The notes beneath the pieces are model-generated. The model was not told the DNA's origin. It did no database searches and saw nothing but the letters and a program-made list of their open reading frames with translations. 64,000 nt of DNA from positions 478,479 to 542,478 of the forward strand of contig MEWB01000001.1 in NCBI GenBank assembly GCA_001773215.1, written 5' to 3'. Position 1 is the first letter of the stretch, and the number at the start of each line of letters is the position of its first letter. The position numbers were made by a program, and so were the translations under genes. Below, in pieces: positions 2,517 through 55,323 of the stretch. Origin of the DNA: a candidate division WWE3 bacterium RIFOXYC1_FULL_40_10. GTDB lineage: Bacteria > Patescibacteriota > WWE3 > UBA101185 > UBA10185.

Positions 2517-5500
2517 TTATAGTTTCAAATCCCTGCCGATTCTGCCGAAGGCTTTTTTAATTGGTATGGTTGAGGATATAAAACTTTTTATCACACCCAA
2601 GGCCGGCTGAGAGTCGACTCTAATTTGGTAATTTCCCTTTTCTACTAAAAAGTTATATCTCCCTTTGTAATCCGCTACACTAACTTGGCCTCTAAATTCC
2701 GGCGCTACGCTGTTTACTAATCTAACAATACAACCCGGAACAAATTTACCGGCATGATTTTTTATCACTCCCCAGCTTTTTACATAAGCCTCTAGAGTCC
2801 GATATATAAATAACAACAAGAATATTATAGAAATAAAGATGTTTGTTGGAGTAGGGCTTTTGGTTATCACTACGATACTCCACACTAAGCCGGCATAGTA
2901 GGCGATTGTTGTGACAAAGGCAAATACCGGATTCGTACCACCTATACCTCTCCTAATTTTCTCCAATTGATTCCAATTGCTAGCCAAAGCATCCATAGGA
3001 ATATTTAGATCCAACTTGCCGGATGTTGGTACAACAACCTCCGTTGCTGTTAAAATGTCAGAATATACAGGTTCTACCAATTGACTTGTAATTTTAGCCG
3101 AAGGAAATAGATAGGATGTCTTTCTCGCCGAAATTGTGTAAGTTCCAGGCTCAACTAAAAACTGATATCTGCCATACATATCTGTTACGGTTTGTATCAC
3201 TTTCCCTGCAGCAGATGTTAGTGTAAGAACGACCGGATCTAAAGGTTGTTTATTTTTTGAATCATAAACCACTCCCCACGGGTGATCTTTCTTCCTAAAG
3301 AACCCCGAAATTAGCGAGGGAAGAGCCCATGGATTTATGTAAGGTATGGTGCTTAACGAACTTAATAGTCCGGTAAATAAAAGTGGAGATACTGATAGTG
3401 CCGCCGTGCTAATACCTACGCCAAGCGAAGTGAAAAATCCCACCAGCTTCTCCGCGCTCAAAGCCAAAATATTCCCCATAGGTTTACCTATATGAGGCTT
3501 AGGTTGCTGTACGTCACCTTTTGGAAATATTTCTACAGGAGGTTCTGTCACTTCAACCTCTATTCTGGGCAGCTCGGGGACAATGACTAATGCGGGAACA
3601 GAATCCCCTGTGTAATTTATCCCTCGGGATATTTTATCGCTAACATTGCCTTTAGTGTCTTTAAATCTAACGTACACAGTGTAACCGGCAAGTACATCAG
3701 GAAGCTTATAGTCTTTTGTGGTGCGATAACTTTCCCAAGATGCTTCCGACAAATCACTCTTCGTTGATATCTTCATTTGCTCCACCTTGGCAACATCCCC
3801 GCTTGCTCTTAAATAAAGCCTGATATAAGGCGACTTAGTAGTAGTTGCAGAACTTCCGTCTATTGTCCCATCCGATGAGTTTATTACTAATTTTCCCTTG
3901 CTAAAGTTGTCGTCCTCATCATCTTCATCCTCTTCGTCATCGTCTCCACCAGACACCGCCGGATATTCATAGTACAAAATCCTATTGTTAAAAGTATCAA
4001 CTACATAGATATTACCTGATGAGGTTATAGCTGTTGCATAGGGATAATTGAATTGACTGGTGGAACTGCCAAGTGCTCCCCACCCGGCTAGGTAGGTACC
4101 CGAGAGTGTGAACTTTTTGATCATATGATTATAGGTATCGGTCACGTATACGTAGGATCCGTAGACATCTACATCCTGGGGTTCATCCATCCCTCCGCTA
4201 TGATCCCACTGAGATATATAAACTCCACCTGCAGTGAATTTCTGAATTCTGTTATTGTACGTATCTGCTACATAAATGTGTCCATATCCATCCATTCCAA
4301 GATTGTAAGGAGTGTCCAGCTGCCCATCCCCGGAACCTGACTCCCCAAACTTATTCACATACACACCCGCTGTTGTGAATTCCTGGACTCGATTATTGTT
4401 GCTGTCTGACACATACACTCTCCCTGTGGGTGAGACTACTATTCCTATAGGGCCGTTAAATTGACCGTTCCCTGCCCCACTACTACCCCACTGGGATAGA
4501 TAGTTTCCGCTCGTATCAAAAACCTGAACCCTATCGTTCGACATATCCGTAACGAAAATTTTATTATCGTAGAAAAAGCACCCCTGGGGATATGAAAACT
4601 GCCCATCACCGGATCCTTCACTCCCCCACGTACTAATAAAGTTTCCGGCACCATCGAACTTTTGAACTCGGTGGGTCTCACCGTCTGACACATAAAGTGT
4701 GTCATTGCCATCCAAACAGGCTCCTGCAGGATTATAGAACTCACCGTTTTCGCCTCCCATTAACCCCCATTTATAAACGAAGCCTCCTGCCAATGTGAAT
4801 TTGGTTACTCTATTAATTGTATTATCAACCATGTATAAGTATCCGCCGTTTAATACAATCGAATAGGCCGATTCGTGATCACCATTAGAGTTTCCCAAGG
4901 TACCCCACTTACTTTGGTACACACCGCTTGAGTTAAATTTCTGCACCCGGGCACCACCCTCGGAAATATAAATGTTGTCATCTTCGTCAACTGCAACCCC
5001 TAACGAGTATACAAGCTCTCCATCACCTGTACCGTATGATCCTATAGACAACTCGTGAACTCCACTACTTGTAAACCTTTGAACCCTACTATTCGAATAA
5101 TCGGAAACGTATATTTTATCGTCAGAGTCGATAGCCATTCTCCCCGGTGAGCTAAATTGCCCATTCCCCGAGCCTGTAGTACCCCATTTTGCGCTATAAT
5201 CCCCATCTGGTTCAAATTTCATTACTCTGTTCAGCACTATATCTGTGACATATACATAACCTGCTGAATCAACTACAACATCTCCCGGTGAAGAAAACTG
5301 GCCATCCCCTGTCCCAGCCGATCCAAATGTCATTTCATAGACAAGAGAAGAGCTGTATTTTTCAACTCTTTTGTTTGTAGTATCTACCACATACAACTTG
5401 TCTGAGGAATCCAAAAAAAGGCCGTGGGGAAAATTAAATTTCCCGTGTGTTGCCCCTTGGCTACCGAACGTAGTTATTGTTTGATCCGATGTAATCTTTA

Positions 5501-46717: not shown

Positions 46718-46746
46718 ATATAGTCAGTAAGCAAAATACTGTACTT

Positions 46747-46765
46747 TCACCATTTCTCACCATTT
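46747..46765 (-). promoter_or_regulatory. Two direct repeats AAATGGTGA at 10-bp periodicity in the mraZ leader: candidate MraZ operator
   Basis: Repeats at 46747-46755 and 46757-46765, just downstream of the putative -10. MraZ proteins are known to bind GTG-containing direct repeats spaced ~10 bp upstream of mraZ. Confidence 0.4.
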
Positions 46766-46772
46766 AAACCCT

Positions 46773-46801
46773 ATATTCCTCCATAAGTACTCCTTAGTCA
46801 A
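46773..46801 (-). promoter_or_regulatory. Putative mraZ promoter (-35 TTGACT, 17 nt, -10 GAATAT)
   Basis: Hexamers read on the minus strand between the upstream terminator and the MraZ-box repeats. Confidence 0.35.
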
Positions 46802-46821
46802 GACAAATAAAACCCGAAAGT

Positions 46822-46858
46822 ACAAAAAAAAGACCGGCAAAAATTAATTTACCGGTCA
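46822..46858 (-). terminator. Strong rho-independent terminator after the small peptide gene
   Basis: 10-bp stem GACCGGTAAA/TTTGCCGGTC (one G-U), loop TTAATT, then U8. Confidence 0.8.
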
Positions 46859-46877
46859 GGAACGTATCAAAGCTCAG

Positions 46878-46994
46878 TCATTTGATCACCCCAGGCAGAA
46901 TTTGGGAAGCGGCAGCCAGGCAGACAAAAGAAAGCCCGATAACTGCCACCAACATAGCATAAAGTACCACCTTCATAGCTTTTTTGGTTTTCAT
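46878..46994 (-). CDS. Unannotated 38-aa hydrophobic peptide (MKTKKAMKVVLYAMLVAVIGLSFVCLAAASQILPGVIK), single TM
   Basis: Below the ORF-track cutoff. ATG preceded by AAAGGAGG (spacer 8). Own -35/-10 promoter and own terminator. Confidence 0.55.
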   Translation of the reverse strand: MKTKKAMKVVLYAMLVAVIGLSFVCLAAASQILPGVIK

Positions 46995-47024
46995 TGGTGA
47001 AGCCTCCTTTTTTTAGATGGGCAA

Positions 47025-47053
47025 ATTATACCCTATAATATGTGAGGTGTCTA
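47025..47053 (-). promoter_or_regulatory. Canonical promoter for the small peptide gene (-35 TAGACA, 17 nt, -10 TATAAT)
   Basis: Minus-strand TAGACA-N17-TATAAT. The -35 overlaps the glyQS stop codon. Confidence 0.5.
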
Positions 47054-48423: not shown

Positions 48424-48978
48424 TTACATCTCTAAACTTTTAAACGATTCATCTAAAGTGAGAGAAATATGACTTTTAACTTTCTCCTTAAATTTAGCGA
48501 ATTTCTTTTCTTTGAGTATATTCAAATCAACTCCGTATCCAAGGTGCTTAAGCAAATTTAATTCAAATTTACTTACAATTAAATCCGCATTATCTGCCGA
48601 ATCATTAAGAGCCTGGAGAGATTTTTCGAAAATATTGTAAATGAGTTCGGAGTCGATTTCTTCAAATACAGTTTTATTTACTAACTCAGCCAGATAAAGC
48701 GCTTTTTTAACTTTTTCATAGTCTTTTTTTAGACGGGGAAATGATTCTATGAGCTGTACTTCATTGATGAATTTAAATCCTGAATCGCTTTGTGATATGG
48801 CAAGCTTTATTTTGTTAAGAGTGTCCAGGCTTCCTGATCTTCTAGAAGTTATCTTGCGCACTCCTTTGGCAATTGCAATTATCTTTCCATTTTCCTGTGA
48901 CAGCATTGTAAATAGTTTGTCTGCATCTTTATGGGCTGAATTTTTAAGTACTATTGCAGTAACATTGTATTTACGCAT
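48424..48978 (-). CDS. recO: DNA repair protein RecO (short form)
   Basis: N-terminal OB-fold pattern (VTAIVLKNSAHKDADKLFTMLSQENGKI). 184 aa, so the C-terminal Zn-binding domain appears reduced. recO-glyQS synteny as in Firmicutes. Confidence 0.65.
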   Translation of the reverse strand: MRKYNVTAIVLKNSAHKDADKLFTMLSQENGKIIAIAKGVRKITSRRSGSLDTLNKIKLAISQSDSGFKFINEVQLIESFPRLKKDYEKVKKALYLAELVNKTVFEEIDSELIYNIFEKSLQALNDSADNADLIVSKFELNLLKHLGYGVDLNILKEKKFAKFKEKVKSHISLTLDESFKSLEM

Positions 48979-49045
48979 ATCTGCATTTTACAAGCATCGC
49001 ACGAGGCTGTACACTATGGGAAACATTTTTAAAAGGAGTGTACTA

Positions 49046-49288
49046 ATGAAAGTCGAATATGTTATCGTCGACAGTAATATGAAAGAAATCCACAGTGGAA
49101 TAACGCCCTCATTGCCAAGATTTCCTGTCAGAGAAGACTCCCTAACTCTTATAGGGCCTGGGGGATTAAAAGCAAAGTTTGCTGTTATCGATGCCAGTCT
49201 CATCCCTCCCTATATCATTGTGATGGAAACGGGTGATCCAGAGGCACTAAGGGCGGCATTATTGACATCAAGCCGAATAACAATTTAA
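49046..49288 (+). CDS. Small protein (80 aa), GC-rich, TPxLPRFP family, tandem paralog 1
   Basis: AGGAG RBS. Motifs GITPSLPRFPVREDSLTLIG and LIPPYIIVMETGD. Confidence 0.6.
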   Translation: MKVEYVIVDSNMKEIHSGITPSLPRFPVREDSLTLIGPGGLKAKFAVIDASLIPPYIIVMETGDPEALRAALLTSSRITI

Positions 49289-49301
49289 GAGGAGCATAGT
49301 T

Positions 49302-49526
49302 ATGGTTTACGATTACATTATTATCGACAGGTATGGGAATGAGCTGTTCCGGGGGACTACTCCCAGGTTACCGAGGTTTCCCTCAATGGGAGATACCCTT
49401 CGCATCTCCACTCACAACCCTGAAGGGAACATGCTCAAATATGTTGTAGTGGAGGCTCAGTTATTCCCTCCGGTCATCTACCTAACCGAGAAAAAAGAGT
49501 ACCAGAGAGGTGAAGTTTTGGCGTAA
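49302..49526 (+). CDS. Small protein (74 aa), GC-rich, TPxLPRFP family, tandem paralog 2
   Basis: GAGGAG RBS. Motifs GTTPRLPRFPSMGDTLRIST and LFPPVIYLTEKKE, clearly paralogous to 49046..49288. Confidence 0.6.
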   Translation: MVYDYIIIDRYGNELFRGTTPRLPRFPSMGDTLRISTHNPEGNMLKYVVVEAQLFPPVIYLTEKKEYQRGEVLA

Positions 49527-49532
49527 CGAAAT

Positions 49533-49574
49533 AAAGACTCTCCCGTTTATTCCAGGAGAGTCTTTCTTTTTTTC
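49533..49574. terminator. Strong (bidirectional) rho-independent terminator between convergent genes
   Basis: Perfect 11-bp stem AAAGACTCTCC/GGAGAGTCTTT, 11-nt loop, then CTTTTTTTT. Confidence 0.8.
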
Positions 49575-49586
49575 AATTAAATCAAA

Positions 49587-51554
49587 CTACAATCCAAAGT
49601 TTAGAGAAGTATCCATCTTTAGATTAAGCTCTTTAGTCACACCGTTTACGGTAACACTATGCTTTTCGGTATCTATACCCGCCTGTTTTTGAATGGTTAG
49701 GCTGTATTTATCCGTTACGATCTCTGCGGGCAAGTAATACTTAAAGGTGAGAGTTTTCGACTCAGCAGGTCCCATCTCAACATACCCGCTATACCACACT
49801 TTATTTCTTTCCTCGCCTTGCAGGCTTCCATCCTCCGAGCCTTCTATCGTAGCAATTTCCGACCCTTTAGGCATATAGACCCTAACCCAATCTCTAAATC
49901 TCTTCACAAACGGATCATAATCAGCGGCAGGCTGTGGATAATCGTACTTAATGCTCACCGTCCTCAACCATCTATCTCCTTCTTTCTCCAACTTATGAGT
50001 TACTTCTTTGGTAACAAACCAGTTTGTTTTGTCTCCCCCCAAGTTGGTAGACACCACCATAGAGTAATCCCCCGCAACATTTTCTATTATTCTTCCACCC
50101 AATCCATATTTTTCTACCAATGCCTGAGCCTGAGGATCAAAGAGATAAGCCTGGATATGCTTTCTTAAAGCCAAATCCACACCCTTGTCTATCATTTTCG
50201 GCCACATATCCTTATCAGTGGATTCAAACACGTTCTTCAACATCGAGTTCATTAAACTGCCCAAAACTCCTTTTCTGTTAGCTTGTTCTCTCAAGGCCAA
50301 GGATGCCATTCTCTCAAGCTCCAGAACAACGTTATCTTGATTATAGGTTATACCATTTACTGTAACCGGCCCTGTAACACCGAGTAATTCTTCAATGACT
50401 CTGGTATCTATAGTAACTATTGCATCCACGGGTTTTATTTGCCACGGTCTAATTCTTCCGGCCATATTGTAGAACACAAGTAACTGATCCATTGAAGTTG
50501 GCAAATCAGGTGAATAGTTCATATCTCTGGCGTACCATCTTTCAACTTTTAAGTAATTGCCGTATGGGGCTGGTGGATCAGGAAAGTCGTATGTTGCGTC
50601 GATATCGTCTAAAACTAAATCGATACTATACATATCCGCAGAAGAAAAGTCTTGATTTTCCAAAACTCCGTTAGCCATTTTAAAGGTTGCAAAATTCGTC
50701 ATAAATCCACCCGTTGGTCGTATTTCTTTATCATTTTGCATAATTATCATGTATCTTTTGGTAGGAGTGTCTACACCAAGTATGCCGGGGAAAATAATTA
50801 ACGCTTGTTTTATATCAGGACCATACTCAGAGGCCTGGGACAAAACATCCTTGGCAAATCTGATATTTTCTCTGATATTAACTCCCTTAATGCTTTCCGG
50901 GTATTTGTCTACATCTATGGGAGACAAAACTTCACCTATTTTGTCGACCTTGGCGATCACAGGATCCATTTGGTTTGCCACCTCAGGCATGATACTCACC
51001 CATATTTGGAATGCTTCCATTAACCCTGTTGTGTCGTCTATTATCTCAGTCTCGTTAACCTTCAATCCTGCAGCATCAGCAAAGGGTTCAACAATATTAG
51101 AGGTTTCCTTCATTGCATCCAGTGCAATAAATCCCGCTTCAATAAACTTATCCGAATCCGAGTAGAATTCGCTGAGTTTAAAATATGAGAAATTTCTCAT
51201 CCACCCAAGATCGGAATCCCTTTCCTGCCGAATTTTATCGAGATCCAACCTTGTCTGTTCAATTACCTTGTCCAAAGTAATCAAATCTCTGTTTTTAACT
51301 GCTGCACCCAAAGCATTTACGTCCTCCTTAAGAACGTTTGTGCTATTTACTAGGGCGAATACAGGTCGTAGCACCTTTACATATACAAACAAGGCTATTA
51401 CACACCCCAAAGCAATTGCCGCAACACCCGCGACTCCTATGCTCCCCAAAATTTTCTTGTAAGACGGTTTTTTTATTCCATTATTCATATTTGGTAAACT
51501 TTCGATATTAGTGCTGCTTGCTGGGGCACTACCCCAAAATTTTGTATTATTCAT
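49587..51554 (-). CDS. Single-pass membrane-anchored large extracytoplasmic protein, possibly DUF4012-like
   Basis: 655 aa with one N-terminal TM. 3 nt downstream of the initiating sugar transferase, next to the glycopolymer cluster. The family assignment is a recollection, not a search. Confidence 0.4.
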   Translation of the reverse strand: MNNTKFWGSAPASSTNIESLPNMNNGIKKPSYKKILGSIGVAGVAAIALGCVIALFVYVKVLRPVFALVNSTNVLKEDVNALGAAVKNRDLITLDKVIEQTRLDLDKIRQERDSDLGWMRNFSYFKLSEFYSDSDKFIEAGFIALDAMKETSNIVEPFADAAGLKVNETEIIDDTTGLMEAFQIWVSIMPEVANQMDPVIAKVDKIGEVLSPIDVDKYPESIKGVNIRENIRFAKDVLSQASEYGPDIKQALIIFPGILGVDTPTKRYMIIMQNDKEIRPTGGFMTNFATFKMANGVLENQDFSSADMYSIDLVLDDIDATYDFPDPPAPYGNYLKVERWYARDMNYSPDLPTSMDQLLVFYNMAGRIRPWQIKPVDAIVTIDTRVIEELLGVTGPVTVNGITYNQDNVVLELERMASLALREQANRKGVLGSLMNSMLKNVFESTDKDMWPKMIDKGVDLALRKHIQAYLFDPQAQALVEKYGLGGRIIENVAGDYSMVVSTNLGGDKTNWFVTKEVTHKLEKEGDRWLRTVSIKYDYPQPAADYDPFVKRFRDWVRVYMPKGSEIATIEGSEDGSLQGEERNKVWYSGYVEMGPAESKTLTFKYYLPAEIVTDKYSLTIQKQAGIDTEKHSVTVNGVTKELNLKMDTSLNFGL

Positions 51555-53393: not shown

Positions 53394-53735
53394 TCAAACT
53401 ACGACTTTGAAATGATCATCCAAAGCCTGTCGAACAGAATCTACGGTAAGAGGACAAACCAATAGTACGACCCCTATTTCTGCATGCCTCATTTTTTTAA
53501 GCTTTATGGTTTGCCCCTTGTCCAACTGCCGCTCAGAGATAAGCAAATTGGATCTAAGGTTATAGGAATTTATCAGATATAAGGCATAATCAATGCTCTC
53601 TAGCCTCAATACGGACATGTTTATGCCTTTTTCCCTGAGCTCTTTCACTCTCTCTTCAAGGAAGTTCAGCAAATCCTTATGGGTAAGCTTCTGTTCACCA
53701 TCATAAACAAGTACCAGCATGTGATTTTTTCCCAT
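53394..53735 (-). CDS. Hypothetical small cytoplasmic protein (113 aa), tandem paralog
   Basis: AGGAG RBS overlapping the end of the upstream gene. Pattern MLVLVYDG...SVLRLES...YLINS...ISE similar to 53745..54083. Confidence 0.5.
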   Translation of the reverse strand: MGKNHMLVLVYDGEQKLTHKDLLNFLEERVKELREKGINMSVLRLESIDYALYLINSYNLRSNLLISERQLDKGQTIKLKKMRHAEIGVVLLVCPLTVDSVRQALDDHFKVVV

Positions 53736-53744
53736 GCCTCACTC

Positions 53745-54083
53745 CTATAGCTTTCCATCGACAAAATCCGACGCTAAGTCTCTTATCCATGCAAACTGCA
53801 TCACAATGTTGGGGACAAAAGTCACCTTAGCTCCGGCGCCGGCTAGTTTAGTAGTTATTTCCGTCGATAGGTCTATTTCCGAAACAAACAAAATCCTGCC
53901 GAACTTATCCAAGTTTCCCAATATATAATCGGCTGCTGCGTTTGGATCTAAATATCTAATAAAACTGAGATCCTTGCCAAGAATGTTCGCAGCAAGACGT
54001 AGGGCTTGGAGATTTCTAACCAAATCCGGATCTTCTGCATTTTTTTGGCTATAGAAATACAAAACTATTAGGTACCTTCCCAT
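53745..54083 (-). CDS. Hypothetical small cytoplasmic protein (112 aa), tandem paralog
   Basis: Start set at MGRYLIVLYFY (AGGAGG RBS). The ORF-track N-terminal extension overlaps the divergent GT and was rejected. Confidence 0.5.
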   Translation of the reverse strand: MGRYLIVLYFYSQKNAEDPDLVRNLQALRLAANILGKDLSFIRYLDPNAAADYILGNLDKFGRILFVSEIDLSTEITTKLAGAGAKVTFVPNIVMQFAWIRDLASDFVDGKL

Positions 54084-54174
54084 TTGAGGCTCCTCCTTAA
54101 CGGTTTTTAGCTGGATTATGGGTATAGTACTCCAAAACTTGCTATAATTCAAAAATGAAAAGGGGTTTTCAAAT

Positions 54175-55323
54175 ATGAAGATAGGGTTAAACGGCCAGTT
54201 GCTATCCAACCCAAACCCGGCGGGGCCAGAAGTATTTGCATCCAGACTATATAAAACAATGGTTAGCACCGATAGCCAAAACGATTACGTTCTCTATCTT
54301 GAAGATAAAGCAAAAACTGAACTTATAGACCAGGTAATAAGATCTAACCCAAAGCTTGAAGTAGTAATACTAAGAAAAGTACTTTCGTGGACACAAATTA
54401 GTTTGGCTATAGAACTCATAAGAAACCCGGTAGATGTATTTTTTACCCCCATCCATACAATTCCCGGACTAACTTCAATTGTCACTCTCGGAAAATTCAG
54501 GCCTGTAACAATGATTCATGGACTGGAGTACAAGGTAAACAAAGAATATGAAAACAAGCACATCAAAAAATTGCTACATCCCCTGATACTTTTTTGGACT
54601 ACTCAGGTATCTAGAAAAATAGTTGTCCCTTCTCAGGCAACAAGAGATGCGCTAATAAGAGATAAGTTCTTAAACGTAAAGCCTGACAAAATTTCAGTGA
54701 TTCCCGAAGGTGTCGACAAAGGTTTTTTTAGTAAAGATGAAACCGAAGTTGCCAAAATTACTTCTAAGTACGGCTTAGTTCCGGGTAAGTACCTTTTTTT
54801 CATTTCAACTATTCAACCTAGAAAAAACATCCCTAATACAATTAAGGCTTTTTCTGACGCCTTAAAAGAAACAGGCTTAATAGATCATAAACTTGTCCTT
54901 GCCGGTAAATTCGGCTGGGATTATCAAGGAATCTTGGAAGAACCGAAAAAACAAAATATCGAGGCGAACGTTAAATTTTTAGGTTGGACACCTGACGAGG
55001 ATATCAAAGCACTCTTGTGGGGTAGCAAGGGATTTGTAAATTTTTCTTTAGAGGAAGGTTTCGGACTACCTTTACTCGAGGCACTTGCGTCGGGCATTCC
55101 CTGTGCGGTATCCGACATTCAAGCCTATAAGGATTTGGGGAAGAACTTCCCAATCTATGCAAATCCCACTAGTATTAATGAAATGAAGGAAGCTTTGAGT
55201 AAATTACTGACCTCAACGAATTACATTGGTACGGAACAAGTAAAGTACGCCGGCAATTATAATTGGGAGAACACTGCTACAAAGCTACTTCAAGTTCTCC
55301 AAAATGTTGTTAAGCACTCTTAG
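54175..55323 (+). CDS. GT4-family glycosyltransferase
   Basis: EEGFGLPLLEALASGIPCAVSD (EX7E). Confidence 0.8.
   Translation: MKIGLNGQLLSNPNPAGPEVFASRLYKTMVSTDSQNDYVLYLEDKAKTELIDQVIRSNPKLEVVILRKVLSWTQISLAIELIRNPVDVFFTPIHTIPGLTSIVTLGKFRPVTMIHGLEYKVNKEYENKHIKKLLHPLILFWTTQVSRKIVVPSQATRDALIRDKFLNVKPDKISVIPEGVDKGFFSKDETEVAKITSKYGLVPGKYLFFISTIQPRKNIPNTIKAFSDALKETGLIDHKLVLAGKFGWDYQGILEEPKKQNIEANVKFLGWTPDEDIKALLWGSKGFVNFSLEEGFGLPLLEALASGIPCAVSDIQAYKDLGKNFPIYANPTSINEMKEALSKLLTSTNYIGTEQVKYAGNYNWENTATKLLQVLQNVVKHS

Follow-up and report, generated by a model that had tools for sequence, protein, structure and literature searches.

Genes for short proteins with no homologues beyond one lineage, annotated only as 'hypothetical protein', are a familiar feature of the CPR/Patescibacteria. 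A large part of CPR genomes consists of such orphan small genes, whose protein-coding status can usually not be demonstrated. We analyzed two adjacent genes of this kind, here called A and B, in a 64-kb stretch of DNA from a WWE3 genome (64,000 nt; "the window" denotes this whole stretch). In contrast to most orphans, they can be shown to be coding from internal evidence, since each has a tandem paralog for comparison. In sequence, this is a new family; as a kind of feature, hypothetical genes for small proteins that are confined to one lineage are common in CPR genomes.

Compact two-gene accessory cassettes are also formed by type II toxin-antitoxin (TA) systems, and one of them, a DUF433/DUF5615 pair in a more distant CPR genome (locus L035), lies like our pair between a DUF4012 gene and recO. 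The differences are that A and B are paralogous partners, that they have no TA domains, and that they lie on the opposite strand.

With respect to predicted structure, the nearest described systems are generic small beta-barrels of the SH3-like or Sm-like type. Structural neighbours include bL25/Ctc, eS6, the C-terminal barrel of MnmA, CooT and the barrel domain of MrfA, with 6-18% identity, hence no sequence relationship, and on the basis of a low-confidence model. The near-neutral pI of A and B sets them apart from RNA-binding small barrels. A loose N-terminal likeness links the pair to the PRC-barrel (PF05239), in the form of a hydrophobic strand, a D, a G and another hydrophobic strand. 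Finally, part of A recalls the armadillo (ARM) repeat (PF00514). ARM repeats are usually found in arrays, and one repeat alone is not stable; here, there would be a single unit, it scores below threshold, it does not extend to B, and the region is predicted to be beta rather than helical.

The reading that we favor, with some reserve, is that the pair is an accessory, taxonomically restricted two-gene orphan cassette that encodes small cytoplasmic beta-rich proteins.

Two small genes with their own translation signals and terminator

The pair is self-contained: each gene has a Shine-Dalgarno site, 13 nt separate the two genes, and a strong intrinsic terminator follows them (Table 1). A first-pass annotation, made from the sequence without database searches, had described two small open reading frames with their own Shine-Dalgarno sites at this spacing, and both coordinates and sequence agree with it. 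The Shine-Dalgarno sequence of B starts immediately past the stop codon of A, and translational coupling is therefore possible.

Table 1. Features of the locus, in window coordinates.
Feature	Position	Strand	Description
recO	48424-48978	-	RecO_N and RecO_C (Pfam)
Insertion	48979-49586	.	608 nt, from recO start to DUF4012 stop
Promoter-like site of recO, TGTACA-17-TAAAAT	48985-49013	-	Consensus scan; back to back with the candidate promoter of the pair
Sigma-70-like promoter candidate, TTTACA-17-TACACT	48987-49015	+	~30 nt upstream of the ATG of A; consensus scan, 9/12 matches
Shine-Dalgarno AAGGAG, gene A	49033-49038	+	7 nt 5' of ATG; read from sequence
Gene A	49046-49288	+	80 aa; ORF list
Shine-Dalgarno GAGGAG, gene B	49289-49294	+	7 nt 5' of ATG; read from sequence
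Gene B	49302-49526	+	74 aa; paralog of A; ORF list
Intrinsic terminator	49533-49573	+	Stem 49533-49543 / 49555-49565, 11 bp; 11-nt loop; then C and T7
DUF4012 gene	49587-51554	-	Pfam; convergent to the pair

The stem of the terminator begins 6 nt past the stop codon of B. On the plus strand, the element has the GC-containing hairpin and the U-tract downstream of the stop codon that are expected of a Rho-independent terminator. The predicted folding energy is -16.6 kcal/mol (z-score -3.45), a value that none of 200 shuffled sequences equalled. The terminator had also been proposed to serve the convergent DUF4012 gene. The hairpin does lie 3' of the DUF4012 stop codon on the minus strand, so that the element is shared as claimed, but the T tract in that direction is poor (ATTTCGTTAC).

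From the consensus scan, we infer that TTTACA-17-TACACT is the promoter of the pair. Transcription from this site would yield a single bicistronic mRNA of ~0.55 kb.

Divergence of the two copies as protein-coding genes

A and B had been called clear paralogs with ~40% identity. BLASTP bears this out, with 38% identity over 66 aa (E-value 2e-14), far more than expected by chance. In a tblastn search of both proteins against the whole 64-kb window, only the reciprocal match was found. The motifs that are invariant in the alignment read Y-I-D, G-T-P-x-L-P-R-F-P, D-x-L and A-x-L-x-P-P-x-I-x-x-x-E. Altogether, 27 residues are invariant, and they fall into four clusters: strand 1 (Y5, I7, D9), a loop (G18-x-T20-P21-x-L23-P24-R25-F26-P27), D31-x-L33, and the C-terminal A-x-L-x-P-P-x-I-x-x-x-E.

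The nucleotide sequences of the two genes have diverged in the manner expected of protein-coding genes, with differences that accumulate at synonymous positions when the genes are read in the proposed frame. At the first, second and third codon positions, nucleotide identity is 0.58, 0.62 and 0.29, respectively, and A and B use different codons for 19 of the 27 residues that they share. In the protein match, the sense frame scored 49 bits and the in-register antisense frame 35 bits, with all others at or below 16.5 bits. From the codon-position pattern it follows that A and B are real genes and that the duplication is old. Judged by these substitutions, synonymous sites are saturated, and both copies are retained under selection on the protein sequence.

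A structured RNA in place of genes was considered and rejected. Fold z-scores were 0.17, 0.06 and 1.41, and there was no Rfam match near a gathering score; the Rfam search returned sub-threshold noise only, at the terminator.

The divergence pattern also bears on the idea that A and B are non-functional or decaying reading frames, the relic of an old insertion that is still open by chance and has no present role. Such a relic would fit with the lack of homologues and the absence from relatives, and since the public copies are clonal, present-day constraint is not measurable. However, both frames are intact, and each start codon has a canonical GGAG 7 nt before it. Moreover, divergence is biased towards third positions (0.29 versus 0.58 and 0.62) while 27 residues are invariant, a pattern that requires both copies to have been under purifying selection for a long time since the duplication. 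The neighbouring genes are tightly packed, and CPR genomes are small and compact. We therefore regard chance survival of decaying frames as quite improbable, and treat A and B as genes in what follows. The tandem paralog here provides internal proof of long-term selection on the protein.

Relatives in sequence databases

Neither A nor B has a match in Pfam, NCBIfam, PHROGs or PADLOC. With the threshold relaxed to an E-value of 10, hmmscan against Pfam-A listed just two families, Arm at 13.5 bits and CDC48_2 at 13.9 bits, each under its cut-off. Word-indexed searches of 5.8 billion proteins found only A and B themselves. A is 100% identical to P0002, the 'hypothetical protein A2264_04065' of candidate division WWE3 bacterium RIFOXYA2_FULL_46_9, and occurs on contigs of up to 903 kb. 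The only database relative of B is P0001 (97% identity), which is encoded on a 1-kb JGI contig. This contig has 99.5% nucleotide identity to the window and thus comes from the same population.

When 1.84 billion cluster representatives were searched exhaustively with a HMMER profile, the matches were A and B together with five long tandem-repeat proteins (P0003-P0007). We tried these five as homologues and rejected them. Their scores are sums of 4-13 stretches of ~6-10 bits each, and in pairwise comparison the summed weak stretches reduce to coincidental matches of 12 residues (NPEG..YVV) and 21 residues (SGIT..DSLT.IG). Apart from these, profile and database searches returned A and B only, and no homologue of the family was detected elsewhere.

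Phage or plasmid origin was likewise rejected, as no relatives were found in PHROGs, IMG/VR, INPHARED, PLSDB or, by fold, in BFVD (E-value threshold 0.001). In particular, neither the IMG/VR viral contigs nor pattern scans of JGI metagenomes yielded anything, and tblastn against INPHARED (phages) and PLSDB (plasmids) gave no match at an E-value of up to 1. A weak tblastn match of B in locus L009 (E-value 0.28) has no matching open reading frame and is spurious.

In five further public assemblies, the nucleotide sequence of the locus is 100% identical. The only variant copy (L001, JGI 3300009285) has two A>C changes in B, at window positions 49395 and 49414, and both are nonsynonymous (T32P and H38P). 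The same copy has a 1-nt deletion inside the DUF4012 gene (window 50040). These differences are probably sequencing or assembly errors rather than real alleles. With this copy set aside and the other five assemblies identical, dN/dS could not be calculated for the population.

Base composition and codon usage

The pair had been described as GC-rich, at ~50%. It does lie above the window mean (44.9%, versus 40.5 +/- 3.0%), with 42.8% for A and 47.1% for B, but the original figure is overstated, and 7% of stretches of the same size reach or exceed the value of the pair. What is unusual is only the GC content at third codon positions (GC3) of B, from which the GC excess of the pair almost wholly derives. 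GC3 of B is 0.58. Host genes cut into 75-codon chunks have a GC3 of 0.38 +/- 0.07, and a value as high as that of B occurs in only 0.4% of the chunks. No overlapping open reading frame or RNA structure was found that would explain it. For A, GC3 is 0.39 and thus ordinary for the host. The host-like composition of A fits poorly with a recent joint import alongside B. Measured by host codon preference, A and B both rank among the lowest 4-7% of host chunks.

Predicted protein properties and fold

Both proteins have a mass of 8.7 kDa, with pI values of 5.7 and 6.6 for A and B, respectively. They have no transmembrane segment, no evident signal peptide, and neither Cys nor Trp. AlphaFold2 (AF2) models of A (five models, pLDDT 44-65, from an input alignment of three sequences) are best represented by one with pLDDT 65, which consists of five strands and a C-terminal helix. 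Within it, residues 42-52 and 55-61 are strands, and the best local confidence (pLDDT 73-77) is found over residues 42-61. The AF2 model of B (pLDDT 47.7) is unusable. The modelling suggests a five-stranded small beta-barrel as the probable fold of A and B, to which A adds a C-terminal helix.

Foldseek searches with the predicted fold gave no significant match. Because of this, a role of the pair as small beta-barrel binders can be drawn from the model only weakly. The first-pass annotation had faintly suggested a small beta-barrel of the PRC type. The barrel as such is plausible from the low-confidence model of A, but PRC membership found no support: PF05239 is absent from the Pfam-A matches of A and B up to an E-value of 10.

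A different view of the fold would be that the C-terminal half is a single ARM-like helical repeat and that A and B are mini alpha/beta proteins, not beta-barrels. Residues 33-69 of A match the ARM repeats of importin-alpha with 22.8 bits (E-value 7.7e-4 in a PDB-sized search), residues 32-78 span the full 42-residue unit of designed ARM proteins with ~36% identity (AVIDA-x-L-x-P ... AL), and Pfam Arm (PF00514) is reported with an E-value of 0.076. However, Pfam Arm reaches 13.5 bits in A, short of the gathering score of 20.6, and has no match in B, and the 43 bits scored by designed ARM proteins add up from six identical stretches of ~7 bits each. B alone has no PDB match up to an E-value of 10, and it ends before helix 3; the ARM likeness is thus not a feature of the family. 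No ARM protein came up in the search of 1.84 billion representatives, and a tandem array is not present, as there is at most one unit, in A. Furthermore, AF2 predicts strands at residues 42-61, exactly where its local confidence is best. Chou-Fasman propensities were indecisive between the ARM-like and the strand assignment. Together, these data make an ARM-like fold very unlikely, and we retain the small beta-barrel as the probable fold.

For reference, the ARM-like stretch of A, which is sub-threshold, corresponds to window positions 49142-49282 (residues 33-79).

A lineage-specific insertion between DUF4012 and recO

The pair is flanked by recO and a DUF4012 gene. Farther out, Pfam identifies Bac_transf and GT4 proteins beyond DUF4012, and GlyRS, MraZ and RsmH beyond recO. 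The 608-nt interval between the two flanking genes consists of the pair, its promoter region and the terminator, on the strand opposite to DUF4012 and recO.

The comparison covered 43 loci from GTDB species representatives, retrieved with GlyRS as the anchor, together with the surroundings of the closest RecO homologues. WWE3-like genomes share the gene order Bac_transf - DUF4012 - RecO - GlyRS - MraZ. Among 24 loci with co-directional DUF4012 and RecO genes, 21 have a distance of -20 to +55 nt from the DUF4012 stop to the RecO start. The closest public relative (L052, RecO 52% identical) belongs to this majority, with DUF4012 ending at 4982 and RecO starting at 5001. As the two genes abut in nearly all sampled related loci, including the closest one, the pair is a lineage-specific insertion of 608 nt.

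The first-pass annotation had named a strain-specific insertion that is absent from all related genomes and not expressed as a finding that would count against it. The absence is borne out: the pair is missing in every sampled relative, both at the syntenic site and elsewhere in 468 kb of related loci, where an unfiltered search of all six-frame open reading frames with the family HMM found nothing. The closest sampled relative is distant (RecO 52%, GlyRS ~55-75% identity), so that 'lineage-specific' may refer to anything from a strain up to a family-level clade.

The three exceptions at the DUF4012|recO junction are all different. In L035, the TA-type pair mentioned above occupies positions 2583-3138 on the plus strand and encodes a DUF433 protein of 72 aa and a DUF5615/PIN-like protein of 118 aa. 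L010 has two orphans at positions 4428-5385, neither with a Pfam match: one of 89 aa, hydrophobic and membrane-like, is encoded on the opposite strand, the other, of 130 aa, on the same strand. L016 has a gap of 326 nt. The RecO|GlyRS junction is also variable, with 3.2-3.3 kb of extra DNA in L013 and L021 and ~2 kb in L031. An unrelated 89-aa orphan lies at this junction in L050 (5602-5871, minus strand) and in L051, again on the opposite strand. The varied insertions at both places show that the junctions of this operon repeatedly take up small accessory cassettes.

Hallmarks of mobile elements were looked for and not found: the insertion has no integrase and no flanking direct repeats, and the window contains no tRNA and no second copy of the insert. 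Since integrase, tRNA and flanking direct repeats were not found, an origin by transfer is unproven.

A 16-nt inverted repeat with 15/16 complementary positions is present at 48425-48440 and 49596-49611 (TACATCTCTAAACTTT / AAAGTTTAGAGAAGTA). Its arms lie in the last codons of recO and of the DUF4012 gene and bracket recO together with the pair. A repeat of this quality arises in 3% of Markov shuffles of the 1.7-kb region. As both arms are coding, the repeat is probably a coincidence.

The TA-type pair of L035 raises the question of whether A and B are themselves a two-gene addiction or conflict cassette (toxin-antitoxin, immunity or anti-defence) that has settled in a permissive operon junction, with one paralog neutralising or modulating either its sister or a partner. 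The format is consistent with this, in that two small genes lie side by side with a promoter and terminator of their own, have an accessory distribution and show atypical codon usage; so is the presence of a TA-type pair at the very same junction. However, A and B are paralogs, unlike the partners of a toxin-antitoxin pair; for type II systems in particular, partners would be non-homologous rather than 38% identical, and no toxin or antitoxin domain was detected with Pfam, NCBIfam or PADLOC. The lack of matches in PADLOC, Pfam and PHROGs, the lack of homologues in phages or plasmids, the near-neutral pI and the lack of a predicted DNA-binding motif also argue against it. We consider a conflict cassette unlikely, and continue with the accessory orphan cassette as the preferred reading.

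Proposed consequences for recO and DUF4012

In relatives, recO is presumably co-transcribed with DUF4012. Because recO abuts DUF4012 there, recO would need a new promoter here. The promoter-like site upstream of recO is a candidate. Its -10 hexamer, TAAAAT, ends 6 nt 5' of the recO ATG, and there is no Shine-Dalgarno sequence before this ATG. The arrangement suggests that the recO mRNA is leaderless and that this was created by the insertion.

Cutting the ancestral DUF4012-recO-glyS operon would be a side effect of the insertion. DUF4012 would have gained a terminator, and recO-glyS a new promoter region. Expression of recO-glyS could then be served either by the new promoter or by read-through that is antisense to B and A.

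Possible role of the cassette

As an accessory orphan cassette, the pair would supply small, near-neutral, Cys-free cytoplasmic proteins. In the model of A, the G-x-T-P-x-L-P-R-F-P loop would lie between strands 2 and 3, at roughly the place of the RT-loop in SH3-like barrels, and this invariant proline-rich loop is the best candidate for a binding surface. A and B would then most likely be a homo- or hetero-oligomeric binding or adaptor module rather than enzymes, and would most likely act in protein-protein or ligand binding via the conserved proline-rich loop. The module may be dispensable cargo, either derived from an unsampled donor or arisen and duplicated within the lineage. As far as the evidence goes, the pair encodes ordinary hypothetical proteins without a link to a known pathway.

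A more far-reaching possibility is that a new mini-protein family was born or radically remodelled in one WWE3 lineage and then duplicated. Its members might form a heteromeric small beta-barrel with a TPxLPRFP loop that docks a host-cell or symbiosis partner; or the pair might be a new two-paralog conflict cassette. We think it quite unlikely that matters go this far. If either were true, CPR genomes would be using the DUF4012|recO junction as a hot spot for trying out such cassettes.

As an accessory orphan cassette, too, the locus is a clean and small test case for lineage-specific gene gain in episymbiotic, reduced genomes. Synteny pinpoints the entry of the cassette into an operon of envelope genes, recO and glyS, and the rewiring of this operon. 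Two proteins as short as these are easily synthesised for structural work.

Other observations in the window and in related loci

In the glycosyltransferase cluster, two further minus-strand open reading frames of 113 and 174 aa (53394-53735 and 53745-54269) have no Pfam match at an E-value of up to 0.001. The gap between mraZ and glyS measures 333 nt (46718-47050), and in other assemblies of the same organism a 38-aa open reading frame is called there (L002, positions 833-949).

Several GTDB records with a GlyRS 69-72% identical to that of the window (L023, L024, L029, L011-L013 and others) are titled 'uncultured Gammaproteobacteria' or 'Candidatus Saccharibacteria'. L011-L013 share the DUF4012-RecO-GlyRS order of the window. 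The titles look like taxonomic labels from automated submissions.
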